A stretch of 64,000 nt of DNA, taken from contig JBAZFC010000001.1 of assembly GCA_041653635.1 (NCBI GenBank), positions 433,723-497,722 on the forward strand. Direction: 5' to 3'. Under the pieces are notes generated by a model, which saw nothing but the letters and a program-made list of their open reading frames with translations, was not told the origin of the DNA and searched no databases. Below are positions 20,191 through 59,190 of this stretch, in pieces. Numbering within the stretch: position 1 is the stretch's first letter; each line of letters opens with the position of its first letter. The stretch is from Candidatus Micrarchaeia archaeon (GTDB lineage: Archaea; Micrarchaeota; Micrarchaeia; Anstonellales; Bilamarchaeaceae). The translations under genes and the position numbers were made by a program.

Positions 20191-20230
20191 CCCAAGAGCA
20201 AACACTATTAACGCATCAAATAGTTTTAAA

Positions 20231-41351: not shown

Positions 41352-42581
41352 CTAGAGAATAATATACGCGTTCCCCTTCTTCGTAATCGTCAAAGCAGTT
41401 TCCCCGGAGAACCCGAACGTCTTCGCATATCCCTTCTCTATCTTTATGCGCATCCCGTCCCTCACGAGCGCCCCGCGGTTGTCAAATATGTATATCACTC
41501 CCTCGCTCCCCTCTTCGTCCGCCACCACGAGCCTTGTCAGGTTTTCCTTCACCCTCTTGCTCTTCTGGTACTCCTTCTGCTCCACGCTCTTCACGAGCAG
41601 CGGAACCGTGGTCACGTTCCTCATGCCGCTTTTAAGCTCCGTGAGATGGGTAATATTCATCTGCTTGTGCCTGTCCTTCGCAACCCTGAACGCCAGCTTT
41701 ATCTCCTCCTCCGCGTTCCTCACCATGTTCTGCATCGCCTTTTTCATGACGTCCTCGTCACCTTCCGAGGCGAGCATCGTATCATAAGCAAGCCTGAACA
41801 GGCTCCCCTTCTCCTCCCTCTCCTCGCGCACCTCCTGCGCCTCAACCGCTTCGGGCGTCTCCAGCTCGCTGGAAATCTCGTCCATCTCCCTTCCGGCCCT
41901 GCCCATGTCCAGCTCCTTAGTCCCCACGCTCTGGAGCCCGAGCTTCCCATCCGTTGAATCTTCCGAGGGCTCTTCGGTTTCCGGCTCCCTTCCCTCTTTC
42001 CCGTTGTTCTCCTTCTTCTCCGGAATCCCCGGCTTCTGCCCCTTCGCCTCGCCCTCGTCGCTTATCACGTGCGTCTCTGCACCTGAAATGACATCCAAAT
42101 AATCAGTAAGCATCTCCTGCACGGCCCTGCCCTTCTGCTCGTTAACCTGGCCGTTCTTGCCGAACGCCTTCATGTAAATCTTTTCCAGGGTGGGGAGCAT
42201 CCTGCCTTTCATCGCGGCGGCCTTCTCCTTGCCCAGCTTCCTCTCCATCAGCTGCTGCAGGGGCCTCATCATCTTCTCGCGCGCCGTTTCCGCCTTCCTC
42301 TCCTCCTCCACGCTCTTCTTCTCCTCGGGCTTCTCGTCCGCGCCGTTCTTGAACACTTCCGCGAACGACATGAGCTCCGGCTGCGCCACCCTCTTTCCAT
42401 CCAGCAGCGTCCTCGCGAGCGTGCTCACGCTCGCATCCTTGTCGTAGGTAAGCTCCAATAGCGCGAAGTTCGCCGCAGGGTCCTCATACCTTGCAAGCTC
42501 TGCCGCGGCCTGCTTCCTGACCTGCGGGTTCGCGTCAAAAGTGAGCGACACTAGCTCATTGAGAGTCGGTTTGCGCGTCAT
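41352..42581 (-). CDS. HEAT-like repeat / low-complexity E,K-rich hypothetical protein
   Basis: 410 aa from internal ATG 42581. N-terminal HEAT/PBS-lyase-like repeats. Confidence 0.5.
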   Translation of the reverse strand: MTRKPTLNELVSLTFDANPQVRKQAAAELARYEDPAANFALLELTYDKDASVSTLARTLLDGKRVAQPELMSFAEVFKNGADEKPEEKKSVEEERKAETAREKMMRPLQQLMERKLGKEKAAAMKGRMLPTLEKIYMKAFGKNGQVNEQKGRAVQEMLTDYLDVISGAETHVISDEGEAKGQKPGIPEKKENNGKEGREPETEEPSEDSTDGKLGLQSVGTKELDMGRAGREMDEISSELETPEAVEAQEVREEREEKGSLFRLAYDTMLASEGDEDVMKKAMQNMVRNAEEEIKLAFRVAKDRHKQMNITHLTELKSGMRNVTTVPLLVKSVEQKEYQKSKRVKENLTRLVVADEEGSEGVIYIFDNRGALVRDGMRIKIEKGYAKTFGFSGETALTITKKGNAYIIL

Positions 42582-43368
42582 CCTTAACACCCAGCTCCTC
42601 CAGGGCCAAACGGAACACGTTGAGGAGCGCATGCCCCTCGTCCTTGGTCGGATTCGCCCTCGCGAGAACCCTCGCGAACGCAACCTTGCACCTTCCCGGG
42701 TTGCGAAGCCTATATCTCGCCGCCATCTTATTAAACATATGCGTGAGTGCGCGCCTCTCCGAAGGCGAAAGCCGCTCTTCCCCCCAAGAGGAAGGGGGGG
42801 CACCCCCCTTCTCTCTAGGGTACTCATAACCCCCCATTTTTGTCCTTGCAAACCCAGCTTTAGCCATCCCACTATCAATGGAATACAGAACCACCGCAAC
42901 CGCATGGCTAAGGTTCAGCACCGGATAGCCCGCGTGCGTTTCCGCATGCACCAGCAGGTCGCACGCGCTTATCTCCTTTTCATTGAGCCCTATCCCCTCC
43001 CTGCCGAAAACCAGCGCTATCCTCTGCCCGCCGCGCTCCCCCAGTCCGGCGCAGAACTTTTTCAGGGGCACCGCCGCCCGTATCGTCCCCTTGTTCCTCT
43101 TCAGGATGCCCGTCGTCCCCACCACGAGGCCGCAATCCCCCACCGCCTCCCGCAGCGTCCCGTACCTCTTCGCCTTTTTCAGGAGCCCCACCGCATGCTT
43201 TGAGAACTTGACAGCGTCGGCCCCCAGCCCGCATTTCGGGCCCGCTATCCTCAAATCAGAAAAGCCGAAATTCTTCATAACGCGCGCGGCCATGCCGACA
43301 TTAACATCGTATTCCGGCCCTACAAGGACCACGCAGAACGTGGGCGCGGCCCCTTTTTTCCCGCCCAT
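42556..43368 (-). CDS. SpoU/TrmH-family RNA 2'-O-methyltransferase with C-terminal extension
   Basis: 270 aa from ATG 43368. SPOUT knot motifs (LVFGREGIGL, AVAVVLY). C-terminal extension contains the in-frame repeat copy E. Confidence 0.75.
   Translation of the reverse strand: MGGKKGAAPTFCVVLVGPEYDVNVGMAARVMKNFGFSDLRIAGPKCGLGADAVKFSKHAVGLLKKAKRYGTLREAVGDCGLVVGTTGILKRNKGTIRAAVPLKKFCAGLGERGGQRIALVFGREGIGLNEKEISACDLLVHAETHAGYPVLNLSHAVAVVLYSIDSGMAKAGFARTKMGGYEYPREKGGAPPSSWGEERLSPSERRALTHMFNKMAARYRLRNPGRCKVAFARVLARANPTKDEGHALLNVFRLALEELGVKDDAQTDSQ
42779..42870 (+). repeat. Dispersed hairpin repeat, copy E (inside the SpoU CDS, in-frame)
   Basis: CCAAGAGGAAGGGGGGGCACCCCCCTTCTCTCTAGGGTACTCATAACCCCCCATTTTTG... 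homologous to copies A-D. Confidence 0.7.
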
Positions 43369-43432
43369 GTGCGTTTTATAAATCCTTCTCCTTAAATATT
43401 TTCCACTTATACTTATTTGGTGCAGTGGTACG

Positions 43433-43963
43433 ATGGAACTCGATGAACTTGAAGCACAGATAAAAACGCTTGAGGACAAGAAGTCCGGCCTCATAGAGGA
43501 GATTAAGAAGAACTACGGCCGGATACGCTACAAGAAGTACGAGGAGAAGGCCCTCGACCCGTACCTGAAGGAAACAGAGCACGTGATGGTCGGCCCGGTC
43601 AGGAAAAAGCTCCGACAGCTGGAGTTCCGCATATCCACCCAGGCTTACACCCCGCAGATAGAGCGCCAGATGATAAAGGACGTGCGCAAGGCGGAGGAGG
43701 AGCTGAAGGGCCTGAGGCAGGTAGAGCGCGCACGCAGGAAGAAGAAGCTCGTGCAGCAGGACATCATAGACGCGGAGAACCGCATTAAAGAAATAGAGGA
43801 GGAGCTCAAGAAGATACGCGAGACGCTCAAGGAGCTCTACGGGAAGGCGCGCACCTCAAAGTCGGCGAACAAGCAGGGCGTCACCTTCGGGGAGAAGCAC
43901 GACCACCTCGTCTCCATGGGGGATGTAGTGATTATAGAAGAGGAAGGGAAGGACAAGAAATAA
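43433..43963 (+). CDS. Coiled-coil protein (hypothetical)
   Basis: 176 aa, heptad-rich K/E sequence. Confidence 0.5.
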   Translation: MELDELEAQIKTLEDKKSGLIEEIKKNYGRIRYKKYEEKALDPYLKETEHVMVGPVRKKLRQLEFRISTQAYTPQIERQMIKDVRKAEEELKGLRQVERARRKKKLVQQDIIDAENRIKEIEEELKKIRETLKELYGKARTSKSANKQGVTFGEKHDHLVSMGDVVIIEEEGKDKK

Positions 43964-44383
43964 TTACCTGATTAGTTTTTTCCCTTCTTCAATTATCTTT
44001 TCGTGGTCAAATCCAAGCTCAGGCAATTCCTTTAGCGGAAACCACTTCGCCTCCTTCGCATCATCCCCGCCTTTCAGTTCCCCGCCCACCGCCTCGCACA
44101 GATAAGCCGCAGCCACGGTCCCCCGCGGGTCCCTGTCCGGGCCTGAGAATACCCCGATAAGTTTTTTCACGCGCACGCTCAGCCCCGTTTCCTCAAGCGC
44201 CTCGCGGGCGCAGCACTGTTCCGCCGTCTCATCCGCCTCGGCGAACCCTCCGGGAAGCGCCCACTTCCCCTTAAACGGCTCATTCTTCCTCCTAATCAAT
44301 ACTATTCTCCCGTCCCGCACTATCATGGCATCTGTTACGAAAGGCCTCATGAGATGTGTTGAAATTAGTGTATTTATAAGCAT
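43964..44383 (-). CDS. NUDIX hydrolase
   Basis: 139 aa. Nudix box GGFAEADETAEQCCAREALEETG. Confidence 0.8.
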   Translation of the reverse strand: MLINTLISTHLMRPFVTDAMIVRDGRIVLIRRKNEPFKGKWALPGGFAEADETAEQCCAREALEETGLSVRVKKLIGVFSGPDRDPRGTVAAAYLCEAVGGELKGGDDAKEAKWFPLKELPELGFDHEKIIEEGKKLIR

Positions 44384-44412
44384 TTCTCCACAAATATTAT
44401 TCCGGGGTACAT

Positions 44413-46449
44413 ATGCCGGAACCTAAAGGCAAACTTGATTCATCTAATGGAGAGAGGGTAATCAGGCTGGATTCAACTGAGCCATGCGCTCCTAAGGCGA
44501 GGGATTTGCGCGGCAGGGAACCTTGTTCCAGCAGGGATGCAAGGAATGCGCATAATATGAGCGCAAAGATTTCACTTCTCAATCCGTCTGGAGAGGAAAT
44601 TGCAACCGAAACAATTGCTGAAGGCGAAACAAAATCAGTTGGGGGCATTCGCGTAACCGTTTTTGCAGTTGGCATTACTCTCGCAGGATGCGAGTACATA
44701 ACAAATAACTATTATAGTCAGGATGCCACCCAGGAGCCAGACGACGCTGGCGAGCCGGAGATAACTGATGCAAGTGGTGAGGTTTCCATTCCGGAGGCCT
44801 CTGATTCCGAAGCCGAAGCTCCAAACATGTGCGAAACCGCCCCCCGTTCTGAAAGATGCGACATCAGGACCGAAACCAGGTCAAGATGCGTCGCAGGCGA
44901 GAACATTGCAGTCGAGAACAATGGTTATCTGTTCGTGCCCACGGGCATAAGCGAAGACGGAGTGAGCATGAGGGTATTGGATTCTCTTAACAGTTGCAGG
45001 CAGATGGGGGACGACAGCACGCTACAGATTGGGGAAATAGTCATACTTTCCCTAAACGGCGAAACATTCACCGCAATTGCGCCGACGATAGCATACTCGG
45101 ATTCACCGCCGTGGGCAATCCTTGACATTGAGAAATCCGTTGCGGGCCCGGTTTGCGCAGAAGAAATGGACAGGTGCACGGAAAGGTCTATAGATCGGGC
45201 AACCTGTGACACCTACGAAGGGAAGGGCGTTCCATTTGACAACCTCCTTTTCATTCCCGCAAGGATTTACATGGAAAGTTCTGTTCCGGCAGCTGAGATG
45301 ATTGTGCAGGACAAATATAGGGAATGCGAGGTCGTGGGAACAGCCGCAATACTCCAGGGAGAAGAGGGTATCATCACGGTTGGCACGCAGCCTTATCGTG
45401 TAAAATTGGACGAAGCAATCGTTTCCGACCCGTCAATGGGCCTATCCTCCGCAAGATTGGTGATAAAGCGCGGCGCAGGCCCTGACCCTGCAGTTTGCCC
45501 GGATGTGACCGGGACTTGCGAGGATTTCCCGCATGGCAATTGGCTATGCATGGTATATGAGGGGAAGGCTGCGGATTTGGAAGGTGGTCGCCTCATGACC
45601 GTGCGGAGGATATGGGAGGAAGGGGGCGTTAAAAAAGTCACACTTGAGATGCAAGACCTTCATGCTGATTGTGCCGTGGTATATACATTCACTCTTGATG
45701 AGCATACTGATACTGGATCATGGCCATTTGAGTTCCGTGGCAGGGAGTATGGAATACATGTATATTATTTGAATACCGAAGGAGCAACAAAAATGGCAGG
45801 CCTAATTGTGTACCCGAGGACCTGTGACGATGAACGGCCAGCGGACTTTTGCACTTCGCCCTCGCCGACCAGTGTGGAATGCATTACGCGTGATAGCGCA
45901 GCAGTTGAGTTTGATGGCATACATTTTTTCATAAATCCGCTTGAGGACTCAACAATCGGGCCGTTCGCGGAGGTTGTTGCAGAAGATATGTCTGATAGCT
46001 GCCATAGAGAATTTGGCCGTGTTCTTATCAACGTTCCAGGCTATTCATACGTTTTTGCTGGCGAATATTCGTATAAAATAACTGTATCCACAGCCGACCT
46101 TGGTTCCGGGGAGCTTTCTATAACAATAGAACGCGGTGCGCCAACCATATGCGATGGCAGCGAAAGGAGCGAGTACCTTGATGTGGCCGGAGCCCCGCCT
46201 CTAGTCTCGGCTGATGGTGTGCTCACAGTTAGCCTTACAGACATAACAAGGGATGTTCCGCCACGCGCCTCGTTGCTGGTCACGGATACGGTAAGCGGAG
46301 ACGTGGTGAGGCGCGTCCCGTTGCCGGCCGGTGGCACCGCAATTGTGACATACCGCGGAGTGAACTACATAATACTGGTGCACGATGTTTCGTCAGGCGT
46401 AATGCTCATAGACAAGTGGGCATACGCATCCATAGCGACCTGCGAGTAA
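44413..46449 (+). CDS. Large membrane-anchored Cys-rich extracellular protein (hypothetical)
   Basis: Up to 678 aa (alternative start MSAKISLL at 44557). Hydrophobic anchor ending in LAGC, more than 20 Cys, no recognised domains. Confidence 0.55.
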   Translation: MPEPKGKLDSSNGERVIRLDSTEPCAPKARDLRGREPCSSRDARNAHNMSAKISLLNPSGEEIATETIAEGETKSVGGIRVTVFAVGITLAGCEYITNNYYSQDATQEPDDAGEPEITDASGEVSIPEASDSEAEAPNMCETAPRSERCDIRTETRSRCVAGENIAVENNGYLFVPTGISEDGVSMRVLDSLNSCRQMGDDSTLQIGEIVILSLNGETFTAIAPTIAYSDSPPWAILDIEKSVAGPVCAEEMDRCTERSIDRATCDTYEGKGVPFDNLLFIPARIYMESSVPAAEMIVQDKYRECEVVGTAAILQGEEGIITVGTQPYRVKLDEAIVSDPSMGLSSARLVIKRGAGPDPAVCPDVTGTCEDFPHGNWLCMVYEGKAADLEGGRLMTVRRIWEEGGVKKVTLEMQDLHADCAVVYTFTLDEHTDTGSWPFEFRGREYGIHVYYLNTEGATKMAGLIVYPRTCDDERPADFCTSPSPTSVECITRDSAAVEFDGIHFFINPLEDSTIGPFAEVVAEDMSDSCHREFGRVLINVPGYSYVFAGEYSYKITVSTADLGSGELSITIERGAPTICDGSERSEYLDVAGAPPLVSADGVLTVSLTDITRDVPPRASLLVTDTVSGDVVRRVPLPAGGTAIVTYRGVNYIILVHDVSSGVMLIDKWAYASIATCE

Positions 46450-46489
46450 TCCCTTTTGATTTTCTTTCTTTAATTCAGGAGACGATGCA

Positions 46490-47065
46490 ATGAAACCAGC
46501 AACAATTCCCAAATCCGAGCCTGCGGAATGCCCCCAAATCCCAGAACGGAGGCGCTTCCTCCACACCGTGCTCTTTGCAAGCACGGCGCTCGCAGCCGGC
46601 TGCAAATCTAAAGAATCCAACCCAGCAACATCCGCACGCCTTTTCCAGAACCACCCATTCCCTCTTGGCAGTTCATCCCTCACCCTCAAGGAGTGCAGCG
46701 GTGCGGAACAGACAGCAACATTTGAGGTCTCCAGGCCCGGAAATGAACTCCCGGATTCCGTAACCCTCCGCATCCCCGGCTCCTTCACGGTTTCCGGCAT
46801 CCATCCCCCGGCATCCAACAAATACGAAATCTATGTTGAAAGCATCTCCCGCAATGCACCAAATTCCGCAGATGTCTCCATCTTAGAATCCACGCCAGCC
46901 AAAGGTTCCGAAAATACCGCAGGGCTTTTCTCCGACCTTCCCGCCATAGGCGCGGCAGTCGCTTTCTTCGGAGCGGTGGCTTTCTGGATTACGCACCGCC
47001 GCAAGCCTGAGGAAAGTGAAGGCACCCTCCTGGGCCCCAGGGGCGGCAAAACCACAACCATTTAA
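46490..47065 (+). CDS. Secreted protein with Tat-like signal (RRRFLH), lipobox-like AAGC and C-terminal TM anchor
   Basis: 191 aa. Confidence 0.5.
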   Translation: MKPATIPKSEPAECPQIPERRRFLHTVLFASTALAAGCKSKESNPATSARLFQNHPFPLGSSSLTLKECSGAEQTATFEVSRPGNELPDSVTLRIPGSFTVSGIHPPASNKYEIYVESISRNAPNSADVSILESTPAKGSENTAGLFSDLPAIGAAVAFFGAVAFWITHRRKPEESEGTLLGPRGGKTTTI

Positions 47066-47088
47066 TTACTCCCTGAGGAATTTAACCA

Positions 47089-48408
47089 ATGGATTTGGGC
47101 AAGAGCCTTCGCGCTCTGATCAACAAGATTACCAACGCCCCAGTCGTAGACGAGGCGACGCTCAAATCCTTCATCAAGGAATTGCAGCGCATCCTGATTG
47201 CGTCCGATGTGAATGTTAAGCTCGTTTTCGAACTCTCAAAAAAGATAGAGAAGCGCGCGTCCGCGGGCGAAGTCCCCAAGGGGCTCACCATGCGCGAGCA
47301 TCTCCTGAAGGTGGTTTACGACGAGCTCGTATCCTTCATGGGCACCTCTTATGAGCCAAGGTTGGACAGGCACAAGGTGCTTCTGTGCGGCCTCTTCGGC
47401 TCAGGAAAAACAACCAGTTGCGCAAAGGTCGCTTATTTCTACAAGAAGAAGGGGATGAAAGTAGGGATGGTCGGCGCGGACGTTGAGCGCCCCGCAGCCC
47501 AGGAGCAGCTTGAGCAGCTTGCAGCCCAAATCGGAGTCAATTACTATACCATAAAAGGGGAGAAGGAAGCGTACAAGGTTGTGGAGGACGCCCTCAGCAA
47601 GAGCAAGGATGATATTCTAATAGTGGATTCCGCAGGAAGGAGCGCGTTTGATGCCCGCCTCGCAGATGAATTGAGCAACATAATCCGCGTGCTCAAGCCG
47701 GACGAATCTTACCTCGTGGTGAGCGGGGACATCGGCCAAATAGCCGGCAAGCAGGCAGAAGAATTCAACAAATTGACTCCGGTGACAGGAGTCCTCGTAA
47801 CAAAGATGGACGGGAGCGGAAAAGGGGGAGGCGCCCTCTCCGCGGTAGCCGCCACCGGCTCCAAAATCGCCTTCATCGGCGTGGGAGAAAAGATGGAGGA
47901 CCTCCAGGTCTATGATTCCGAAAGGTTCGTGGGCCGCCTCCTTGGCATCCCGGACATCCAGGGCCTGATGGAAAAAGTAAAGGAGATTTCCGAATCCGGC
48001 GAGATGCAGGCACCCGAGGAAGTGACCGAACTCACGGTTGATGTGTTCTACCAGCAATTGAAAGCGGCGAAGAAGCTCGGCCCATTAGACTCGGTATTCT
48101 CCATGATGGGGATGTCCGATGTCCCCCGCGAGATGATGGACCAGGGCCAGGACAAGCTGAAAAAGTATGAGTCCATAATATCATCCATGACAAAGGCGGA
48201 AAGGAAGGACGCCTCCCTAGTGCGCAAGAGCCGCGCCCGCATGGAGCGCATCGCGAAGGGCTCCGGCTGTGAACTGGAGGACGTTCGCCGCTTCCTCTCA
48301 GAATTCTCCAAGATGGAACAGATGTTCTCCCGTTTCCGCAAGGACCGCGGGCTGCGCAAAAAGCTTGAAAAGATGATGAAAGGCGGAAAGCTGCCTTTGG
48401 GCATGTAG
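47089..48408 (+). CDS. srp54: Signal recognition particle protein SRP54
   Basis: 439 aa. N-domain, GTPase G-domain (GLFGSGKTT, DSAGR), Met-rich M-domain. Confidence 0.9.
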   Translation: MDLGKSLRALINKITNAPVVDEATLKSFIKELQRILIASDVNVKLVFELSKKIEKRASAGEVPKGLTMREHLLKVVYDELVSFMGTSYEPRLDRHKVLLCGLFGSGKTTSCAKVAYFYKKKGMKVGMVGADVERPAAQEQLEQLAAQIGVNYYTIKGEKEAYKVVEDALSKSKDDILIVDSAGRSAFDARLADELSNIIRVLKPDESYLVVSGDIGQIAGKQAEEFNKLTPVTGVLVTKMDGSGKGGGALSAVAATGSKIAFIGVGEKMEDLQVYDSERFVGRLLGIPDIQGLMEKVKEISESGEMQAPEEVTELTVDVFYQQLKAAKKLGPLDSVFSMMGMSDVPREMMDQGQDKLKKYESIISSMTKAERKDASLVRKSRARMERIAKGSGCELEDVRRFLSEFSKMEQMFSRFRKDRGLRKKLEKMMKGGKLPLGM

Positions 48409-48459
48409 TTTTTAAGCCTTTCAGCATACAATCTATCCACTAATCCCTGAGGTTATGCC

Positions 48460-49071
48460 ATGTATTACAGGACGTCCGTAGAAGAGAAGGTAAGGCTTCC
48501 CCCAAAATTCCTGGTGATGAAGCTCACCGATGCGGTGACAAAGATGCTCCGCGAGAAGTACGAGAGGAGGATAATCCGGGACATGGGCCTGGTCATCGCC
48601 GTGGAAAATGTTGACGTGGGCGGGGACGGCACGGTCATCCCGGGCGACGGCGGCATCTACTACGATGCGAAGTTCGACGCCATCACATTCATGCCTTACG
48701 TGAACGAGGTGTTCAGCGGCGAGGTGAAGGAAGTGGTTGAGTTCGGCGCCTTCGCCTCCATAGGCCCGCTGGACGCGCTTATACACATCTCGCAGATAGG
48801 CAACGACAAGTACTCGTACGACAAGAAGAACAAGTCCCTCACAACCAGGAGGGGCTCGTCCGTGAAGAAGGGCGACAGGGTCGTAGTGAAGGTATCAACC
48901 GTCAGCATGAGGGCGACGACCTCGGACACCAAGATAGGGCTCACCATGCGCTCGGACGGCCTTGGCCCGGAGAAGGAGAAGCGCGCTGAAAAAGCGAAGG
49001 CGGGCAAGAAGCCGGCCGCAAAGGGCAAGGCAAAGGAAACCAAGGAAGAGAAGAAGGGTGAAGCGAAATGA
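48460..49071 (+). CDS. rpoE: DNA-directed RNA polymerase subunit Rpo7/E'
   Basis: 203 aa. S1 domain plus K/A-rich tail. Followed by spt4. Confidence 0.85.
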   Translation: MYYRTSVEEKVRLPPKFLVMKLTDAVTKMLREKYERRIIRDMGLVIAVENVDVGGDGTVIPGDGGIYYDAKFDAITFMPYVNEVFSGEVKEVVEFGAFASIGPLDALIHISQIGNDKYSYDKKNKSLTTRRGSSVKKGDRVVVKVSTVSMRATTSDTKIGLTMRSDGLGPEKEKRAEKAKAGKKPAAKGKAKETKEEKKGEAK

Positions 49072-49250
49072 AGGTCTGCAGGGAATGCCGGTTCGTGGTT
49101 GAGGGCTCTGACAAGTGCCCGAAATGCGGCTCCGCCGAGCTCACTGACCGTTTCTCAGGCATGCTGATTGTGCTGGACCCGGAGAAGTCCGAAATCGCAA
49201 AAGTGGCGCAGGTAAATTCGGTGGGAAGATACGCGCTGAAGGTAAAATGA
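49068..49250 (+). CDS. spt4: Transcription elongation factor Spt4 / RNAP subunit E''
   Basis: 60 aa. Zinc ribbon CRECRF...CPKCG. ATGA overlap with rpoE. Confidence 0.75.
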   Translation: MKVCRECRFVVEGSDKCPKCGSAELTDRFSGMLIVLDPEKSEIAKVAQVNSVGRYALKVK

Positions 49251-49960
49251 AGTTCGTATCCGGCGCCGAAGCCGCCGTTGTGGAAGATTCACTAATCATC
49301 GCGGACCTGCACCTTGGGATGGAGCAGGAGCTTTTCCGCAGGGGAATCCGCATAGGCGATTTCACTGATTACCTGATTGACAAGACATTGCTTCTCCTCC
49401 GCGAAACAAAATGCAAAAAGCTAGTGATACTCGGCGACATAAAGGAGAACGTGGTCTCTCTTGAGGGGGAGGTGCGCCGCTATTTTGACTCCGTGCTTCC
49501 GCACGCATCCGTTACAGTTTGCAAAGGCAACCATGATGGGGATATAGAGAGGATAAGCGGAATAAAAATCGCCCCGCCCGAAGGAATCGTGCTGCACGGA
49601 ATAGGGATGCTGCACGGCCACGCGTGGCCAGCACCGGAACTCATGGAATGCAAAACAATCCTCATGGGGCACAACCATCCCCAGCTCACATTCTTTGAGG
49701 GCGGGAAAAAGGAGCCGCACCCGGTCTGGGTTTTCTGCGGGCCTGAAAAATCCGCAATAAGCAAAAAATATCCGTCGCACAACAAGAACCTCAAGCTCGT
49801 AATCATGCCATCCTTCAACCCGCTTTTGGGGAACGATATCGAGAGATTCGGGGGGCTCGGGCCGGTTTTTCGCAACAAGTTATTCCAGTGGAATAAGGCA
49901 ATTGTCTATACGCTTGGCGGAATTAAGCTGGGAACAGTGCGTGAAATAGCACGCACATGA
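49247..49960 (+). CDS. Calcineurin-like metallophosphoesterase (COG1407-type)
   Basis: 237 aa. Motifs DLHLG, GDIKE, GNHD, GHxH. Confidence 0.7.
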   Translation: MKFVSGAEAAVVEDSLIIADLHLGMEQELFRRGIRIGDFTDYLIDKTLLLLRETKCKKLVILGDIKENVVSLEGEVRRYFDSVLPHASVTVCKGNHDGDIERISGIKIAPPEGIVLHGIGMLHGHAWPAPELMECKTILMGHNHPQLTFFEGGKKEPHPVWVFCGPEKSAISKKYPSHNKNLKLVIMPSFNPLLGNDIERFGGLGPVFRNKLFQWNKAIVYTLGGIKLGTVREIART

Positions 49961-50087
49961 CGCGCCATTTTTCATCGACGGCGGGCGCTCTTCCATACGG
50001 AACGAATTTAAAGCGTTATGAGTAATAGTCATACGTTCCACGGGACAAGGTTGTGAACGGTGGAAGAGATAACCAAGAGGTAATTGT

Positions 50088-50327
50088 ATGGGAAGCCGAA
50101 GGGGAAAAGACAAGCTTCTTTATTGCGAATCGTGCGGAAGGGCGGTCCCGCGGACGAAGGCGGTTGATTTCAACAAGAGGAGCGCCTACAGCACCGACCT
50201 GAGAGGGGAGGACAACGTTACTGCTTTTGCGGACCGTACTGTCTACTACTGCATAAGCTGCGCAAAGCACAGGAAAATTTTCGAGCGGAAGAAAGAGATC
50301 GCCGCGAGGAGGAGGACGAGGTTTTGA
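50088..50327 (+). CDS. rps26e: 30S ribosomal protein S26e
   Basis: 79 aa. CxxC...CxxC zinc ribbon with S26e context (CESCGRAVPRTKAV...YCISCAKHRK). Confidence 0.8.
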   Translation: MGSRRGKDKLLYCESCGRAVPRTKAVDFNKRSAYSTDLRGEDNVTAFADRTVYYCISCAKHRKIFERKKEIAARRRTRF

Positions 50328-50328
50328 G

Positions 50329-50622
50329 ATGGACGACGTGGAGTTTTGCGGAAGGAAGTACAAAGCTTTCCAACAAACTCTGGGCAACCTCCCAATGATA
50401 GTCGTCAAGGCAAAGCGCGGATATATCGCATGCAGCTACATAAACAAGGATACCGCGGAGAGGGTGGGCGACATCGCCGCATTCGTTTCCGGTGTCAAGT
50501 GCGTCAGCGACATCTTTTCAGCCAAGGTAAAGGGAACCACCACATGGGCGGAAGACCTTGGCATACGCGAGGGCATGAGCGTGAAGAAGGCCCTAGAGCT
50601 CATGGACAGGGAAGAGGAATAA
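50329..50622 (+). CDS. DUF1805-like small protein
   Basis: 97 aa, tightly linked to rps26e. Confidence 0.4.
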   Translation: MDDVEFCGRKYKAFQQTLGNLPMIVVKAKRGYIACSYINKDTAERVGDIAAFVSGVKCVSDIFSAKVKGTTTWAEDLGIREGMSVKKALELMDREEE

Positions 50623-50671
50623 GCCCGGATATATTTCTTTTTAATTTCTTCCCCCCACAGATAAGTTCCCA

Positions 50672-50755
50672 GCAGGGGTAGCCAAGTGGCCAACGGCGCG
50701 GGCTTCAGGAGCCCGTCTCTTAGTGGGTTCGGGGGTTCGAATCCCCTCCCCTGCA
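50672..50755 (+). tRNA. tRNA-Leu(CAG)
   Basis: Acceptor GCAGGGG/CCCCTGC, 3-bp D stem, anticodon loop TTCAGGA, long variable arm (class II), T-arm GGGGG TTCGAAT CCCCT. Confidence 0.85.
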
Positions 50756-50855
50756 TCTCCAAGAGGAAGAGGGGGGAACTCCCCCCTCCTCTCTTTAGGG
50801 TAATCATACCTCCCCCCACTTCTCATCGCAACCCTTTGCACGTACTCCTTACGCA
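50756..50855 (+). repeat. Dispersed hairpin repeat, copy A
   Basis: AAGAGGAAGAGGGGGG-AACT-CCCCCCTCCTCTCTT hairpin, then TAGGGTAATCATACCTCCCCCCACTTC...CCCTTTGCACGTACTCCTTACGCA. The tail overlaps the stop codon of the P-type ATPase. Confidence 0.75.
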
Positions 50856-53452
50856 ATGGAAGGAAAACCCTTCCTTGAGCGCATCCCCATCCATTTCCGC
50901 ATCTCAAGATAAGCGAAGAGGAACACGCTGGTCCCCAGCACCACCGCCCAGTGCTCCAGCGCCAGCGGCTTGACCGCAAAGAGCACGTTCAGCTCCGGCA
51001 CATACAGAATCGCCAGGTGCATGCCCATGGTCAGCAACACAGTGAGCACTATCCATTTGTTCGCGAGAATCTCCCTCCACACCGGCCTTTCCAGGGACCT
51101 GCACGCGAACACCTTGGTCTTCTCCATCGCGACAAGCATCGTGAAAACCATGGTCTGCGCGAGCACCATGTCGCCGCCGCCCATAACCCATGCAAATGAG
51201 GCGAGAGTGGCGAATGTCATTATTATGGGCGACTCCACAAGGTACAATTCCATCCCGATCCATATGTTTTCATTCCTCTGCCTAGGCATCTTCTTCATCA
51301 CGTCCCCGCTTATGGGGTCCACCGCGAGCGCCACCGCGGGCAGGCCGTCCGTGACCAGGTTTATCCATAATATCTGTATCGCAACAAGGGGGAGGGGCAT
51401 CCCGAGCATCACCGCGAGGAATATGACCGCCACCTCCGCGATGTTCCCGGAAATCAAAAACGCCACCGTCTTCTTTATGTTCTCATAGATGCCGCGCCCC
51501 TCCTCCACCGCAGCAACGATTGTCGCAAAATTGTCATCAGCCAGCACCATGTCCGAGCTCTCCTTCGCGACCTCGGTGCCGGTTATGCCCATCGCCACCC
51601 CTATGTCCGCCTTCTTCAGGGCGGGCGCATCGTTCACCCCGTCCCCGGTCATCGCGACCACGTGCCCCCTCGCGTTGAGCGCATCAATTATCCTCAGCTT
51701 GTGCGCGGGCGATACCCGAGCATACACCGAAATGCCGTCCACTGCCCCAAGAAATTCCTCTTTCCCCATCGCGTCCAGCTCTTCCCCGGTGAGCACCTTC
51801 CCGTTGCCTATCCCCAGCTCCTCCGCGACCGCCTTGGCGGTGAGCGGATGGTCGCCCGTAATCATCACAACCCTTATCCCGGCGCCCCTGCACAGCCCGA
51901 CCGCCTCCTTCGCCTCTGGCCGCGGGCTGTCCATCATCGCCACTATGCCCACGAAGACCAGCGCCTTCTCCACGTCCCCCTTCTTCGTCTTCCCGTCAAT
52001 GTCCCGGTACGCGAGCGCGAGCGTCCTGTACCCCTTGGAGGTGAGGGAGTCGTTCTCCAGCATTATCGCCTCAGCCTCGCCCCTGCCCAGCGGCCTGCTT
52101 CCTCCCCGTGCCCAAATCCTGGCGCATTTCCCCAGCACCACTTCCGGCGCGCCCTTCGCATAAGCAATATGCTTGTTCCCGCTGCCCCTCACAGTTGTCA
52201 TCATCTTCCTGTCCGAATCAAACGGGAACTCAAACATCACCGGGTTCTCCCTTTCCAGTTCGTCCTTCCAAATCCCGCCTTTCGCCGCGAGGACGAGCAG
52301 CGCACCCTCCGTGGGGTCGCCGACCACTTCCCAGCCCTTCTTCTTTTCCAGCCAGGCGTTGTTGCACAGGGCCCCGATTTTCATCGCCAATTGCAGCCCC
52401 TCGTCCGCGCCCACCGCCTTCCCGCCAGACCTGAACTCGCCCCTCGGCTCATATCCCGAGCCGCCGACCTCGAAAACCTTCCCGCCTACCAGCACCCTCC
52501 GGACAGTCATCTCGTTCCGCGTCAGCGTCCCAGTCTTGTCCGTGCAGATGACGTCCGCGCACCCGAGCGTCTCCACCGATTTTAGTTTTTTCACTATCGC
52601 GTTCCGCCTGCTCATCCTCTGCACGCCCACGGCCAGCGTAATCACGACCACGGCGGGCAGTCCCTCCGGAATGGCAGCCACCGCGAGGCTCACCGAAGTA
52701 AGGAACATCCCCACCGGCTCGAATCCCCTCGCCAGCCCGGCGAGGAATATGAACGCGCAAAGCACGAGCACCCCCACCCCCAGCTGCCTGCCCATCCTGT
52801 CCAGGTCAACTTCCAGGGGAGTCCTCTCCTTCTGCACGGTCTGCACCATCTCGGTTATGCCGCCCATCCGGGTGGCCATCCCAGTCTTCTCAACGAGCAT
52901 CCTTCCCCTGCCCGCGACTATCACCGTTCCAGTCCATGCGCGGTCCTTCCCTGCCTCGTGCTTGTGCACAGGGACGCTCTCCCCGGTGAGCGCCGCCTCG
53001 TCCGCCGCAAGCCCGTACTGCTCCACCACCAATCCGTCCGCGGGCACGCGGTCCCCGGCCTCCAGCAGCACGATGTCGCCCGGCACGACCTCCCGCGCGT
53101 CTATGTTCGCCGCCTTCCCGTCCCTCAGCACGTTCGCTCGGGGCGAGACCATCCTCCTCAACGCCTCAAAGGATTTCTCCGCCTTGTACTCCTGCACGAA
53201 CCCGATTATCGCGTGCAGGAAAACAATCGCAAGTATCATTATCACATCCAGCCCCTCGCCCAGCAGTTGGGCGACTATCGCCGCCGCGATAAGGAGCAAA
53301 ACCAGGAAATCCGTGAACTGCCTCAGGAATTTGACCACTACGTGCTCCCCTTTTTTCTCCCGCAGCTCGTTGGGCCCGTATTTCCTGAAGAGCCTGGCAG
53401 CCTCAGCGCCGCTCAAGCCCGCATACCTTGCCATCGCTTTTTGTTCAGGCAC
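50849..53452 (-). CDS. P-type cation-transporting ATPase (type IIA, Ca2+-ATPase-like)
   Basis: 867 aa. DKTGTLT phosphorylation motif, TGDGVNDAPAL, ten-TM architecture. Confidence 0.9.
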   Translation of the reverse strand: MPEQKAMARYAGLSGAEAARLFRKYGPNELREKKGEHVVVKFLRQFTDFLVLLLIAAAIVAQLLGEGLDVIMILAIVFLHAIIGFVQEYKAEKSFEALRRMVSPRANVLRDGKAANIDAREVVPGDIVLLEAGDRVPADGLVVEQYGLAADEAALTGESVPVHKHEAGKDRAWTGTVIVAGRGRMLVEKTGMATRMGGITEMVQTVQKERTPLEVDLDRMGRQLGVGVLVLCAFIFLAGLARGFEPVGMFLTSVSLAVAAIPEGLPAVVVITLAVGVQRMSRRNAIVKKLKSVETLGCADVICTDKTGTLTRNEMTVRRVLVGGKVFEVGGSGYEPRGEFRSGGKAVGADEGLQLAMKIGALCNNAWLEKKKGWEVVGDPTEGALLVLAAKGGIWKDELERENPVMFEFPFDSDRKMMTTVRGSGNKHIAYAKGAPEVVLGKCARIWARGGSRPLGRGEAEAIMLENDSLTSKGYRTLALAYRDIDGKTKKGDVEKALVFVGIVAMMDSPRPEAKEAVGLCRGAGIRVVMITGDHPLTAKAVAEELGIGNGKVLTGEELDAMGKEEFLGAVDGISVYARVSPAHKLRIIDALNARGHVVAMTGDGVNDAPALKKADIGVAMGITGTEVAKESSDMVLADDNFATIVAAVEEGRGIYENIKKTVAFLISGNIAEVAVIFLAVMLGMPLPLVAIQILWINLVTDGLPAVALAVDPISGDVMKKMPRQRNENIWIGMELYLVESPIIMTFATLASFAWVMGGGDMVLAQTMVFTMLVAMEKTKVFACRSLERPVWREILANKWIVLTVLLTMGMHLAILYVPELNVLFAVKPLALEHWAVVLGTSVFLFAYLEMRKWMGMRSRKGFPSIA

Positions 53453-53492
53453 GAGTTTTATAAACTCTTAGCTTTCAATTAGAGCAAAAAGG

Positions 53493-54212
53493 GTGCTGGT
53501 TATGTATGGGGTTACGCCACAAGCTTATGACCGGGCAATAACAGTCTTCAGCCCGGACGGAAGGCTTTTCCAGGTAGAATATGCAAAAGAGGCAGTGAAG
53601 AGGGGCGCCACAGCGGTAGGCGTCTGCACGATGGACGCGGTCGCGCTGGTCGCATACAAAGCCGCGCATTCGCGCCTCGTGGTCCCGGAATCCATGCAGA
53701 AGATTTTTGACGTGGACAACCATGTCTGCGTCACCGCGAGCGGCCTGATTGCGGATGCGCGCCGCCTCGTGGACATAGCGCGGACGCACGCACAGAGGCA
53801 CAGCATGACCTTCAACGAGCCCGTGCCAACCGAGTCCATAGCAAAGCACGTTTGCGACCTCATGCAGTTATACACCCAATACGGGGGCATACGGCCCTTC
53901 GGCGTCTCCCTCCTCGTTGCGGGGGTGGGCAAGGGCGGCCCCGAGCTCTACGAGGCGGAGCCGAGCGGCGCCATGACAGGCTACTACGCGGATTCCGTGG
54001 GGAACGCGAAGAAGGAAGTGGACGAGCTCCTTGAGAAGAAGTTTGACAGGAAAATGGACATAAAGGACGCGATAGGCGTTGCGGTTGATGCGCTCAAGCA
54101 GACGAGCGAAACCAAGCTCACCGCGGACAACATAGAGGTGCGCTACGCAACGGTCGCATCACCCAAATTCGTCCCCATGACCGAGAAGGAAATCGCAAAA
54201 TACTTGAAATAG
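53493..54212 (+). CDS. psmA: Proteasome alpha subunit
   Basis: 239 aa. YDRAITVFSPDGRLFQVEYA N-terminal signature. Confidence 0.9.
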   Translation: MLVMYGVTPQAYDRAITVFSPDGRLFQVEYAKEAVKRGATAVGVCTMDAVALVAYKAAHSRLVVPESMQKIFDVDNHVCVTASGLIADARRLVDIARTHAQRHSMTFNEPVPTESIAKHVCDLMQLYTQYGGIRPFGVSLLVAGVGKGGPELYEAEPSGAMTGYYADSVGNAKKEVDELLEKKFDRKMDIKDAIGVAVDALKQTSETKLTADNIEVRYATVASPKFVPMTEKEIAKYLK

Positions 54213-54240
54213 ATTTTAGATTTCCAGATTAAGGCGCGCC

Positions 54241-54340
54241 CCTCCAAGAAGAAGAGGGGGGCGCCCCCTCCTCTCTTTAGGGTAATCATACCTCCCCCCC
54301 CCACTTCACTAGGGGGACGCTTTGCACGTACTCCTCACGC
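54241..54340 (+). repeat. Dispersed hairpin repeat, copy B
   Basis: AAGAAGAAGAGGGGGGCGCCCCCTCCTCTCTT hairpin plus a TAGGGTAATCATACC... tail near-identical to copy A. Sits between the convergent psmA and pyrH stops. Confidence 0.75.
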
Positions 54341-54352
54341 GCTTTTCTGCAA

Positions 54353-55036
54353 TCATTGCGAAGAAACAATAGTCCCGGCGTGCCTCTTTCCTTTTACTGC
54401 CTTTTCCAAATCCTTAACATTTTTCCCGCCCACAAAGTGCAGCTCTATCCCGCTCCTTTTCGCGAGCTTGCACGCCACCATGTCAAACACGAAATTAGTG
54501 CCCGGCGCCCTCTGGTCGTATTTCTGCGCCATCTCCAACAGTTGCGCGTGCGTCATCTTGTCAAATTTCTTCGCGGAGGGGTTGCCCTTCGGGTCCGAAT
54601 CGTAAATCCCGTCCACGTTGCTCAGATTGACCAATCTTTTTGCCCCGATTGCCTCCGCGAGCAATACGGAATCCGTGTCCGTAGTAATGCCTGGAATCGT
54701 CCCTCCCATCACCACAATCTTGTGCCCGCCCAGCGCGGCTGCCGCCTTTCCGAAGTCCCTGAACACCTTCGGGTGCGCCACATCCCGGAACAATGCGAGC
54801 ATGAGCTGTGCGTTCAATCTTGTCGCCGCCACAGCCGCTTCGTCCGCAACGAAATTGTTGCCGCAAAATTCCCGCGCGGCGGACGCATATTCCCTCGCAA
54901 CCTTCCCGCCTCCGGTGACAATCCCCAGCTCCTCGCCGCTTTTCATCACCATGTCCTTGAATTCCTTGAGGAACGCGTGGTCTATGCTGCCCGTACCGTT
55001 GATCAAGCTTCCCCCAAGAGAGATTACGACTGCCAT
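54353..55036 (-). CDS. pyrH: Uridylate (UMP) kinase, archaeal type
   Basis: 227 aa amino-acid-kinase fold, closely resembling archaeal UMPK (VTGGGKVAREY..., NVDGIYDSDPK). Confidence 0.75.
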   Translation of the reverse strand: MAVVISLGGSLINGTGSIDHAFLKEFKDMVMKSGEELGIVTGGGKVAREYASAAREFCGNNFVADEAAVAATRLNAQLMLALFRDVAHPKVFRDFGKAAAALGGHKIVVMGGTIPGITTDTDSVLLAEAIGAKRLVNLSNVDGIYDSDPKGNPSAKKFDKMTHAQLLEMAQKYDQRAPGTNFVFDMVACKLAKRSGIELHFVGGKNVKDLEKAVKGKRHAGTIVSSQ

Positions 55037-55086
55037 GCGCAGACATTAGTTCGTAAGTTTATAATGTTTTCAGTGCCCTGCGCAAA

Positions 55087-55989
55087 TCAAATCCTGCACG
55101 AAACCCCGTGCTTCAAATAGTATTTCTGGTGGTATTCCTCAGCAGGATAGAATTCGCCCGCAGGCACTATCTCCGTCACAATAGGATTTCTATGTTTCTT
55201 CCCCTCCCCCTCTTTGGATTCCCTCGCCTCCTTCTCCTGTTTTTTGGAATGGAAAAATATCACGGAGCGGTACTGCGTTCCAAAATCCGGCCCCTGCCTG
55301 TTCGGCGTAGTGGGGTCGTGCATCCTCCAGAAAACATCCAGCAATTGCTTATACGATACTTTTGATGGGTCAAACTCCACCCGCACGGATTCCGCATGCC
55401 CCGTCTTCCCGCCGTGCACTTCCCAGTAAGTAGGGTTCTTCGCAGTCCCTCCTGCATATCCCGCGGTGGTGGAAACCACGCCCTTCACGGCATCAAACTG
55501 CTCCTGCACGTGCCAGAAGCACCCAGCAGCAAAAGTAGCAATCTCAGTCTTCATCTCCCCAGCATACGGCTTCAGCGCAGCCGCATTTATGCAATACCTC
55601 TTCCCGGTGGGAGGCGGCCCGTCGTCAAACACATGCCCCAGGTGCGCCCCGCAACGGGCGCACAAAACCTCCTTCCTTTCCATAAAGAGGTCCTTATCCA
55701 CTTTTATCCGCACATTCAATTCAGATACCGGCTCCCAGAAGCTCGGCCACCCGGTGCCGGACTCAAACTTCCTGCCCACCTCAAACAAATCAGTCCCGCA
55801 GCACACGCACTGGTACAGCCCCCTTCCCAGAGGAACATCGCACTTGCCGGTGAAGGGCATTTCCGTCCCTTTCTTCCGTGTAATTTCAAACTGTTCCGGG
55901 GTGAGGATTTTCCTCCACTCCGCGTCCGCCTTCACTACTTCCGGCAATTCCTCAACCGCCTTCTTCCTGGCGTTGAAAATCCTTACCAT
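55087..55989 (-). CDS. msrBA: Fused peptide methionine sulfoxide reductase MsrB-MsrA
   Basis: 300 aa. N-terminal MsrB (CxxC...RYCINAAAL) plus C-terminal MsrA (GCFWHVQ). Confidence 0.85.
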
Positions 55990-55999
55990 GCAACCGCCC

Positions 56000-56982: not shown

Positions 56983-57057
56983 GGGCGTCTTTCTTTTCGC
57001 ACATTTATAAGATTTCCGGCGTGTGCGTTGCAGTCCGGCGGCGCGTTCCCGCCGCGC

Positions 57058-57432: not shown

Positions 57433-57454
57433 GCATGCGTCTTTTCCAAGAAAC

Positions 57455-57514: not shown

Positions 57515-57612
57515 CCCAAAAACGCGGGGAGGGCACTCCCCCCATTTTTAGGGTTCATTCTGACCCCCTCCCACTTCACTTTGAAACCCTTTGCCCGCAC
57601 TCCTTACGCACG
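57515..57612 (+). repeat. Dispersed hairpin repeat, copy C (bidirectional terminator-like)
   Basis: CCCAAAAACGCGGGGAGGGCACTCCCCCCATTTTTAGGGTTCATTC...CCCTTTGCCCGCACTCCTTACGCA. A5-hairpin-T5 arrangement. Confidence 0.75.
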
Positions 57613-57625
57613 CGGTTTTCCTTAA

Positions 57626-57685: not shown

Positions 57686-59090
57686 AAAAATTGAGGAAAT
57701 ACCCGGCAACACCGAGCTTAAGCAGAAGCTCAGGCGCTGGGCCCTCAACTGGGGAAGGGGCGAGCCGGGCAAGCCAATCCTGCTCACCGGCCCCACGGGC
57801 ACAGGCAAAACTGCTCTTGCCGTAGCCCTTGCCACGGAAATGGGGCTTGAGCTTGTGCAGATGGGCGCGAGCGAGCTGCGCAACAGGGAACGTGTGGAAA
57901 AAATAATGCATGGGGCGATGATGGCGTCCACCCTCTCCGGGAAAGGCAAGCTGGTTCTAATAGACGACGTTGATGCGATGTCCGGAAGGGAGGACTCGGG
58001 TGGCGTCTCCTCCATAGCGTCCGTCCTCCGCTCCCCAGCCCAGCCGATAATACTCACCGCAACCAACGCATGGGAAAAGAAGATATCCTCCCTCCGCTTC
58101 CTCTGCGACATCCTCACGCTCAAGAGGGCGATAGCCCCATCCATTGCGCGCATCCTCTCCCGCATCGCGGAGAAGGAGAGGATAGAGTGCCCGGTAGAAA
58201 AAATAGAAGGAATATCCGAGAACGCCAACGGTGACATACGAGGCGCGATAAACGACCTGCAGGCCTGCTCCCCAGGAATGCGCGACCGCGAGAAGGACAT
58301 GTTCGCGAGGATGTCCGCGCTCTACCGCTCCTCCACCTATTCCGAGGCGAGGGCGGCGGGCTTCGGGGATGTTGAGCACGACTACTTCAAGCTCTGGATA
58401 GACGAAAACCTGCCTGCTGTCTTTTCCGGAAGCGAGTTGGCGGACGCCTACTCCTCCCTTTCAAGGGCGGACATCTTTGACGGCAGGATACATTCCCGCC
58501 AGTACTGGGGCTTCCTCCGCTACTCCGGGGATTTGATGTGCGCAGGCACCGCTCTCGCTCACCCCGGCGCGGGCCAGAGGTTCATACGCTTCTCCTTCCC
58601 TTCCTACCTGCGCCAGATGTCCGCGACCACCGCCACGCGCGCAATCCTCCGTTCCCTCCGCTCCAAGGCGGGCAGGAGGCTGCACACCTCAGGCAAGGAG
58701 GCGGAAGGATCCCTCCCCATCCTCGCATTCATGCACGCGAACAGCCCCGCCGAGGTTGAATCCTTCTACGGGCTTGATGAAAAGGAGGTAGAGCTTCTCT
58801 CCTCCATGCTCCCGAAGGGAGTGCATGTGGTGAAGCCGGAGAAGAAAGAGGAGAAAAAGAAGGGCAAAAAAGAGGCAGATGGGAAGGAGAGCAAAGCCGC
58901 ACCGGAAGGAGCAAGCGAAACCGGGAAGGCAAGCCCCCCTGTCCGCGCGGCTGAGAAGGAAGTGAAGCGCGAGGAGAAAAAGGAGAAGGGAGTTCCCGGG
59001 AAGGAATCCGGTGAATCCACGAAGAAGGACCTCCTCCCCCCTAAGAGGCAGCCGCCGGCCCGCCATTCCAAGCTCAGCGAGTTCTTCTAG
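57657..59090 (+). CDS. rfcL: Replication factor C large subunit
   Basis: 477 aa. Clamp-loader AAA+ (LLTGPTGTGKT), MLLTEKYAP N-terminus typical of RFC. Confidence 0.85.
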   Translation: MLLTEKYAPQKIEEIPGNTELKQKLRRWALNWGRGEPGKPILLTGPTGTGKTALAVALATEMGLELVQMGASELRNRERVEKIMHGAMMASTLSGKGKLVLIDDVDAMSGREDSGGVSSIASVLRSPAQPIILTATNAWEKKISSLRFLCDILTLKRAIAPSIARILSRIAEKERIECPVEKIEGISENANGDIRGAINDLQACSPGMRDREKDMFARMSALYRSSTYSEARAAGFGDVEHDYFKLWIDENLPAVFSGSELADAYSSLSRADIFDGRIHSRQYWGFLRYSGDLMCAGTALAHPGAGQRFIRFSFPSYLRQMSATTATRAILRSLRSKAGRRLHTSGKEAEGSLPILAFMHANSPAEVESFYGLDEKEVELLSSMLPKGVHVVKPEKKEEKKKGKKEADGKESKAAPEGASETGKASPPVRAAEKEVKREEKKEKGVPGKESGESTKKDLLPPKRQPPARHSKLSEFF

Positions 59091-59190
59091 AGAAAACGCG
59101 GAGGGAGCGCCCTCCCCATTTTCTTCTATCTTTCTGCCCCTCCCCACCTCCGCTTGGAAACGCTTTGCACTGCTTTATCCATCTCCCCCG
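59091..59190 (+). repeat. Dispersed hairpin repeat, copy D (terminator-like, 3' of rfcL)
   Basis: AGAAAACGCGGAGGGAGCGCCCTCCCCATTTTCTTCTATCTTTCT...GCTTTGCACTGCTTTATCC. Hairpin plus T-rich tract directly after the rfcL stop. Confidence 0.7.

Follow-up and report, generated by a model that had tools for sequence, protein, structure and literature searches.

A hairpin repeat carried in frame in the hinge of a TrmJ-family methyltransferase gene of a Micrarchaeota archaeon

Rickettsia palindromic elements (RPEs) were reportedly described by Ogata et al. 2000, and Suyama, Lathe and Bork are said to have described in 2005 palindromic repeats with coding potential in Methanocaldococcus jannaschii. RPEs are dispersed hairpin repeats that have become part, in frame, of conserved genes in a reduced genome (PMC2229807, PMC10969869), and in the one enzyme tested, guanylate kinase, the insert was neutral or slightly harmful (PMC2229807). 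Here, we analyze a hairpin repeat, copy E, in 64,000 nucleotides (nt) of DNA from Candidatus Micrarchaeia archaeon (assembly GCA_041653635.1, contig JBAZFC010000001.1, positions 433,723 to 497,722), a stretch that we call the window. A first-pass annotation, made from the letters of the window, had placed the repeat in frame and free of stops inside a SpoU/TrmH-family gene, and reading the codons of 42837..42784 confirms this. The host is a TrmJ-family gene, and we consider it likely that copy E is a tolerated insertion in its hinge. A 54-nt member of a dispersed, probably mobile, repeat family would have inserted sense and in frame into the variable TrmJ hinge, leaving a gene that is predicted to stay functional. 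Ribosomes would read through the element, adding 21 residues as a disordered surface loop that the hinge tolerates, and the insert-bearing allele would have a single origin, with homologous recombination later carrying it, along with about 36 nt of the flanking hinge, into related lineages.

Copy E and its host gene

The features of the host gene, all on the minus strand, are as follows, with the basis of each in brackets; alleles with and without the insert are called filled and empty.
42556..43368, minus strand: TrmJ-family tRNA 2′-O-methyltransferase gene, 270 aa (Pfam, TIGR00050, PDB sequence matches, structure matches)
42883..43338, minus strand: SPOUT catalytic domain, residues 11-162 (Pfam, PDB sequence matches, AlphaFold model)
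42844..42879, minus strand: hinge version specific to insert-bearing alleles, I164-R175, IDSGMAKAGFAR (allele identity comparison)
42781..42843, minus strand: 63 nt (21 codons, T176-G196) missing from empty orthologues (filled/empty DNA alignment)
42784..42837, minus strand: copy E, short form (54 nt) of the Micrarchaeota hairpin repeat, encoding M178-W195, MGGYEYPREKGGAPPSSW (nhmmer and codon reading)
42817..42833, minus strand: small 5′ hairpin, GGGGU / loop UAUGAGU / ACCCU (fold and consensus)
42787..42816, minus strand: main G/C-rich hairpin, AGAG.AAGGGGGGU / loop GCC / CCCCCCUUCCUCU, about 12 pairs with one bulge (fold and consensus)
42604..42780, minus strand: TrmJ C-terminal helical domain, about residues 197-255, 3′ of the insert (orthologue conservation, model helices, dN/dS)

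Repeat profiles were built solely from copies in other genomes and searched against the window with nhmmer. Copy E matches such a profile from end to end (positions 1-53 of 53) with E 8.8e-19, and its membership of the repeat family is not a matter of chance. On the minus strand, 42837..42784 reads ATG GGG GGT TAT GAG TAC CCT AGA GAG AAG GGG GGT GCC CCC CCT TCC TCT TGG, which translates without a stop as MGGYEYPREKGGAPPSSW in the TrmJ frame. The 54-mer folds with an energy of -29 kcal/mol, and the consensus structure of 30 distinct copies retains both hairpins, with one pair that covaries (GC to AU in 8 sequences) and many G-U wobbles, which can pair on the sense strand only. When the Rfam 15 covariance models were applied, tRNAs alone reached the gathering score and nothing credible fell on the element at E up to 5.

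The repeat had been drawn at 92 nt (42779-42870), and this extent has to be shortened, the homologous part being the 54 nt at 42784-42837. The alignment to the long-form profile begins no earlier than profile position 56, and a search of the TrmJ hinge with a profile of the 5′ arm gives no match. Thus the long-form 5′ arm of about 45 nt (GCGTAAGGAGTACGTGCAAAG...GTGAAGTGG) is undetectable in TrmJ, and the block of about 36 nt at 42844-42879, which has no similarity to that arm, lies outside the repeat family. In the DNA alignment, filled and empty genes differ by exactly 63 nt, made up of the element, 6 nt at its 5′ side and 3 nt at its 3′ side. The 21 inserted residues, TKMGGYEYPREKGGAPPSSWG, are rich in glycine, proline and charged residues, and the tryptic peptides of a read-through product would include MGGYEYPR and GGAPPSSWGEER.

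The host protein (P0001) is 100% identical to a publicly annotated protein, and its real start is at 43368, within an enclosing open reading frame (ORF) at 42556..43494. Pfam SpoU_methylase (PF00588) covers residues 11-162 with E 3.3e-23, the best PDB sequence matches are TrmJ chains (E 1e-16 to 1e-20), and TIGR00050, the NCBIfam model for TrmJ/YjtD, spans residues 12-252 (profile positions 6-225 of 233), C-terminal region included. The TIGR00050 score of 146.8 bits lies under the curated cut-off of 167.15, and equivalog models likewise stay under their cut-offs; the low score is probably due to the 21-residue insert and to the distance between archaeal and bacterial sequences. The AlphaFold model (mean predicted local distance difference test score, pLDDT, of 79) superposes in Foldseek on the full-length TrmJ structures 5gra and 4xbo (Zymomonas, E. 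coli), with a target-normalised TM-score of 0.75 over 248-259 aligned columns. These matches point to a family-level TrmJ homologue, a SPOUT tRNA C32/U32 2′-O-methyltransferase, for which methylation of tRNA position 32 is predicted.

The first-pass annotation had raised the possibility that the C-terminal extension arose through a recent fusion, brought about by an insertion, and had proposed an orthologue alignment to see whether linker and extension are both absent elsewhere. The alignment separates the two. The 63 nt are missing from empty orthologues, whereas the C-terminal domain, modeled as helices at 202-218, 224-238 and 242-267, is present in 30/30 aligned orthologues, insert or not. 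Because the extension is the normal TrmJ C-terminal domain in every orthologue, as it is in TIGR00050 and in 5gra/4xbo, it is not a fusion created by the insertion.

Downstream of the host gene, the earlier reading had also seen significance in the overlap of the repeat with a long frame of the next gene. ORF 41352..42905 is only an open frame running upstream of the real start at 42581, and no meaning of the overlap is supported.
41352..42581, minus strand: downstream gene, 409 aa, weak HEAT_2 match, its start overlapping the last 26 nt of TrmJ
Gene calls on three related contigs give this gene 404-414 aa and likewise let it begin just before TrmJ ends, with an overlap of 26 nt in L001 and L002 and of 4 nt in L079; the counterpart here is the ATG at 42581. 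Separately from the hinge, a loop of the SPOUT domain (alignment columns 157-193) also varies among other TrmJ orthologues: P0025 has an insert of 36 residues there, and P0008, P0010 and P0023 have short GGWGMET-like ones.

Translation and spread of the insert-bearing allele

The AlphaFold model places the insert after helix 153-170, which closes the SPOUT domain, and ahead of helix 202-218, which opens the C-terminal domain. Confidence drops there, to a mean pLDDT of 53-69 for residues 171-200 and to less than 50 for residues 186-195. The TIGR00050 alignment places the 241 aligned residues on 220 profile positions, a surplus of 21 residues. All eight independent filled alleles agree in length and frame and contain no stop; intergenic copies differ from one another by 1-2 nt in their runs of G and C, with core lengths of, for example, 44, 45, 47 and 48 nt. 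Between insert-bearing alleles, the ratio of nonsynonymous to synonymous substitution (dN/dS) in the C-terminal domain 3′ of the insert is 0.07-0.27, which by this comparison of coding sequences indicates purifying selection on that domain. We also scanned three insert-bearing alleles with our own search for bulge-helix-bulge motifs, which required the canonical motif, and at the borders found no conserved canonical motif that would restore the frame. Motif-like matches were no more frequent than background (12 per 120 start positions, as compared with 12-16 across the gene), and the only one conserved in the three alleles has 2-bp helices and would remove 44 nt. Purifying selection downstream, the lack of a frame-restoring motif and a low-confidence insert between two well-modeled domains together make read-through of a tolerated hinge loop the most economical reading.

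Copies in other genes behave similarly. At five host sites, the TrmJ hinge and four others, the genic copies all enter one frame, f1, which reads GGY[DE]YP[KR]E. The TrmJ C-terminus carries the repeat in P0021 (one module) and P0023 (the other module), and an interdomain linker of DUF460 proteins carries it in P0122 and P0123 and lacks it in 19 orthologues, P0125 included. In the pilin-like protein P0121, encoded outside the window, it forms part of the N-terminal leader, such leaders (class III signal peptide) reading ...GYDYPKERGERLPPSSWKGQ/ASVEFL..., and in a PurL-like gene it contributes 17 residues directly after the ATG (N-terminal examples: P0121 and loci L087, L100 and L073). Frame f1 is the most hydrophilic of the three open frames, with a grand average of hydropathy of -1.29 against 0.07 and -0.27. 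A 97-aa concatenation of element-peptide variants found P0121 as its sole match in the protein collection at E up to 10, because a match of 18 residues gives poor E-values among 5.8 billion sequences; host genes of the repeat were identified from DNA loci. Genic candidates in frame f2 or antisense (L031, L041, L069, L108 and others) were set aside, as the flanking "proteins" look like wrong-frame translations.

Eight alleles bear the insert (P0001, P0002, P0003, P0005, P0007, P0008, P0010 and metagenome locus L122) and share the motif GF[AV]R[TA]K[MT]GGY[ED]YP[RK]EKGGxPPSSW. Insert-free are P0004, the closest orthologue (86% identical, same gene neighborhood), P0006, P0009 and all remoter orthologues. 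On a TrmJ tree computed without the hinge region, each insert-bearing allele is sister to empty ones, in both sub-clades, and filled/empty sister pairs such as P0007 with P0018 and P0005 with P0013/P0014 have unique residues in common elsewhere in the protein. Just upstream of the element, one derived hinge, I-D-x-G-M-A-K-A-G-F-A-R, is found in all filled alleles, whereas the hinges of empty alleles are specific to their clade. Around the insert, filled alleles from different clades have an identity of 0.89-0.96, as against 0.79 gene-wide; for filled and empty alleles within one clade, identity is about 0.5 in the 42844-42879 block and 0.97-1.0 just 3′ of the insert. The flanking block of about 36 nt that is common to filled alleles across clades points to a single origin followed by spread through recombination, and this pattern would fit one insertion event and subsequent exchange between lineages with a conversion tract of about 100 nt.

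Several observations weigh against this explanation. A relaxed splicing motif may exist at the borders of the insert, the scan having covered canonical motifs only, and we infer translation of the TrmJ insert from the DNA. Two element subtypes, YEYPRE and YDYPKE, occur at the same TrmJ site in different alleles, which needs either later conversion from other copies or a second event. Between clades the element differs at 2 of 54 nt, whereas the synonymous divergence of the gene is 0.7-1.1, and such nucleotide conservation could also mean that the hairpin itself is selected or that gene conversion draws on other copies. No clear target-site duplication was found at the TrmJ site, the resemblance there not being significant; the extra 9 nt beside the element are possibly a decayed 9-nt target duplication of AGGGAGGAG.

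A rival explanation is that the element is an archaeal intron dependent on the splicing endonuclease, with a bulge-helix-bulge or a relaxed motif, removed from the TrmJ mRNA to give a protein with a short hinge. The element is a stable RNA hairpin whose stems tolerate G-U wobbles on the sense strand, many repeat copies adjoin tRNA genes, and the splicing endonuclease of Micrarchaeota (ARMAN-2) has a broad specificity and cleaves non-canonical motifs (PMC3239211). Splicing, however, needs neither freedom from stops nor maintenance of the host frame nor a common entry frame, all of which the genic copies exhibit, and at the borders no canonical motif removes a multiple of 3, so that we regard an intron as unlikely. 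Slightly less improbable, though still unlikely in our view, is that the insert has been co-opted, a longer hinge altering tRNA binding or an mRNA hairpin pausing translation between the domains, and that the allele spread because it was advantageous. The filled allele stands at at least six positions on the tree, apparently spread by recombination, the element is almost invariant between clades, and the substitutions that define the subtypes are conservative in the TrmJ frame (E to D, R to K). Against this, most orthologues, the closest ones included, lack the insert, the inserted residues are predicted to be disordered, the same element occurs in unrelated proteins and in intergenic DNA, and the Rickettsia insert was neutral or slightly harmful to guanylate kinase (PMC2229807). 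The earlier suggestion of exaptation into coding sequence thus survives insofar as the insertion is carried in frame; as to an acquired function, the evidence fits tolerated selfish DNA in a hinge.

The patchy distribution of the insert on the tree might also be explained if the long hinge were ancestral, with empty genes produced by repeated deletion, or if the repeat family itself derived from TrmJ coding sequence. We consider this very improbable, as the remoter orthologues (P0026-P0047, bacterial TrmJ) are all short-hinged, the hinges of empty alleles align with those of outgroups while filled alleles have one derived block, and most family copies are non-coding and longer than copy E. A pseudogene, or an assembly artefact made by the repeat, is the least credible of these alternatives, hardly to be entertained: repeat copies do often lie at contig ends and break assemblies, but the same filled allele is present in independent NCBI, JGI, ENA and Logan assemblies, its open frame is unbroken, and purifying selection acts on the domain 3′ of the insert. 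A tolerated in-frame insertion, read through and spread from a single origin, therefore remains our preferred explanation.

The repeat family within and beyond the window

A 19-nt core pattern finds about 59 copies in 7 Micrarchaeota metagenome-assembled genomes, and a longer pattern adds 55 metagenome loci, bringing the family to about 110 copies. Bacterial matches of the 19-nt pattern have no hairpin, and their number agrees with the roughly 35 chance matches calculated; the one match in viral contigs, also without a hairpin, was taken as chance. The family appears to be confined to one clade of Micrarchaeota (DPANN archaea) and is probably mobile. It occurs as a short form of about 54 nt, a long form of about 100 nt, and variants with nested hairpin modules placed before the main hairpin or in its loop. 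Module B is present at L008, L011, L015, L039, L044, L062, L070 and L073, module C at L005, L006, L026, L034, L058 and L069, and module B with a further insert at L021, L038, L042, L059, L071 and L077. The nested modules show compensatory changes, for example CATCGCcgcaGCGATG versus CTTCACcgcaGTGAAG.

The other-genome profiles find five family copies in the window, all on the minus strand. Those besides copy E are:
50759..50859, minus strand: long-form copy (profile E 6e-26)
54244..54347, minus strand: long-form copy between two convergent genes (profile E 9e-27)
57526..57615, minus strand: variant copy (profile E 2e-15)
59090..59170, minus strand: degenerate copy just past the stop codon of an RFC-like gene (profile E 0.0012)

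The copy at 50759-50859 is wedged between the 3′ end of tRNA-Leu(CAG) (50672-50755, plus strand) and the stop of a minus-strand gene of 867 aa, whose TAA (50849-50851) lies inside GCGTAAGGAG, a conserved motif at the 5′ end of the long form. Elsewhere the element ends genes in a related manner, as at several other loci the TGA of TGATGGGGGG at its 5′ edge terminates the upstream gene. The copy at 57526-57615 is flanked by a direct duplication of 55 nt (57460-57514 and 57631-57685, 84% identical), which consists of the upstream region and first 10 codons (MLLTEKYAPQ) of the RFC-like gene.

Such associations recur across the family. The CTTGG end lies 0-3 nt from a tRNA gene in 17/62 copies, 14 of which stand directly 5′ of the tRNA in the same sense and 3 at the 3′ ends of three different tRNA-Leu genes in the opposite sense, the tRNA-Leu(CAG) of the window among them. 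Besides window 50672-50859, the tRNA-adjoining loci are L006, L007, L020, L032, L035, L047, L050, L052, L054, L057, L063, L065, L066, L067, L071 and L076. In 19 of 93 unique copies, imperfect direct duplications of 11-60 nt of host sequence stand on either side of the element, where a control predicts about 1, and in 16 of these 19 the right-hand duplicate begins 0-5 nt after the element. Since the duplications often repeat the end or start of a gene, the interrupted gene stays whole. Orientation is common to 12 of 13 adjacent pairs on the same contig (P = 0.0017), the pairs coming from the window (42784-59170), JBFMEZ010000013, 25 and 29, JAGVON010000043 and 81, Ga0265297_10005586 and Ga0068707_1001580; the window copies lie on the strand of prevailing negative GC skew. 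Adjacency to tRNA genes, flanking duplications and strand bias together argue for real mobility of the family. Many copies lie at the very ends of contigs (L003, L019, L021, L025, L058, L071, L072, L077, L094, L107, L111 and L125), indicating that the family breaks short-read assemblies of these genomes.

Some further features of the window concern its tRNA genes and repeats. Upstream of tRNA-Leu, at 25-32 nt from its mature 5′ end, there is a TATA-like box, TTTAATTT (window 50640-50671), which suggests that transcription of this tRNA starts at or very near the mature end; with such a start, repeats at position -1 of other tRNA genes would give long leaders. A tRNA gene of 100 nt at 6882-6981 on the minus strand (Rfam 54.8 bits) was missed by ARAGORN, resembles the tRNA-Lys gene at 20118-20194 and probably carries an intron. 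At 2581-2743, two tandem units of 70 nt (CCCGGCCTCGG...GGCCTCATCGC...), 79% identical and spaced by 93 nt, are probably a Gly/Ala-rich coding repeat.

Comparison with known systems

We think it possible, though doubtful, that the family represents a novel type of mobile or structured archaeal element, and not simply a miniature inverted-repeat transposable element (MITE) or an analogue of RPEs. Its nested modular hairpins, its precise landing 0-3 nt from tRNA-gene boundaries and at gene termini, its target duplications of variable length (11-60 nt) that preserve the ends of interrupted genes, and its strand bias along contigs suggest as much. Its structure is best preserved on the sense strand, as might be expected of an intermediate of single-stranded DNA or RNA, or of an RNA role in tRNA leaders or 3′ untranslated regions. 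Were the family such an element, coding copies such as that in TrmJ would survive only in one hydrophilic frame. The association with tRNA genes, the long duplications and the apparent spread by recombination provide leads on DNA mobility and exchange in Micrarchaeota, about which, to our knowledge, almost nothing is known.

The family resembles MITEs in consisting of small, non-autonomous stem-loop repeats, which sometimes form in-frame fusions with host genes or N-terminal peptides. We nevertheless rejected this assignment on two defining features, terminal inverted repeats and target duplication of fixed length. The 5′ end (GGGGGGTTATGA; long form GCGTAAGGAGT) shows no complementarity to the 3′ end (TTCCTCTTGG), the inverted repeat being internal, and the flanking duplications range from 11 to 60 nt. 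Nor has a parent insertion sequence been identified, no search for a partner element having been made. Archaeal bulge-helix-bulge introns, both the rare introns of mRNAs and the "transposing" introns of tRNAs, are likewise short structured inserts with a link to tRNA genes; they differ from the genic Micrarchaeota copies, which obey the reading frame and have no canonical motif at their borders. The palindromic repeats of M. jannaschii are reportedly also an archaeal family with some copies inside coding regions, but belong to a different lineage and have a different sequence.

By its features, the closest known analogue is the RPE. Both are small, dispersed, hairpin-forming repeats of reduced genomes, with copies in intergenic DNA, in frame in conserved protein genes and in RNA-gene contexts; in both, orthologues with and without the insert coexist, the insert occupies a surface or loop region compatible with the fold, and genic copies use one frame. 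The likeness is one of features, and no kinship of sequence is expected between a bacterial repeat and one of DPANN Micrarchaeota. The Micrarchaeota repeat is shorter, at 54 nt, or about 100 nt in the long form, versus 105-150 bp for RPEs, and, unlike RPEs, it lacks terminal inverted repeats, often adjoins tRNA genes, is flanked by long and variable duplications and contains nested hairpin modules. Translation of an RPE was shown experimentally, for guanylate kinase, whereas for the Micrarchaeota repeat we infer it from sequence. For annotation, the consequence is that the insert probably helps to hold TrmJ scores under curated family cut-offs, and the filled and empty orthologues amount to a natural experiment on the extra length that a TrmJ hinge can tolerate. 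If copy E is indeed tolerated and read through, selfish DNA within protein genes, of which Rickettsia is the classic case, would extend to DPANN archaea with similarly reduced genomes, suggesting that such repeats generally find a safe haven in the hinges and termini of essential enzymes.

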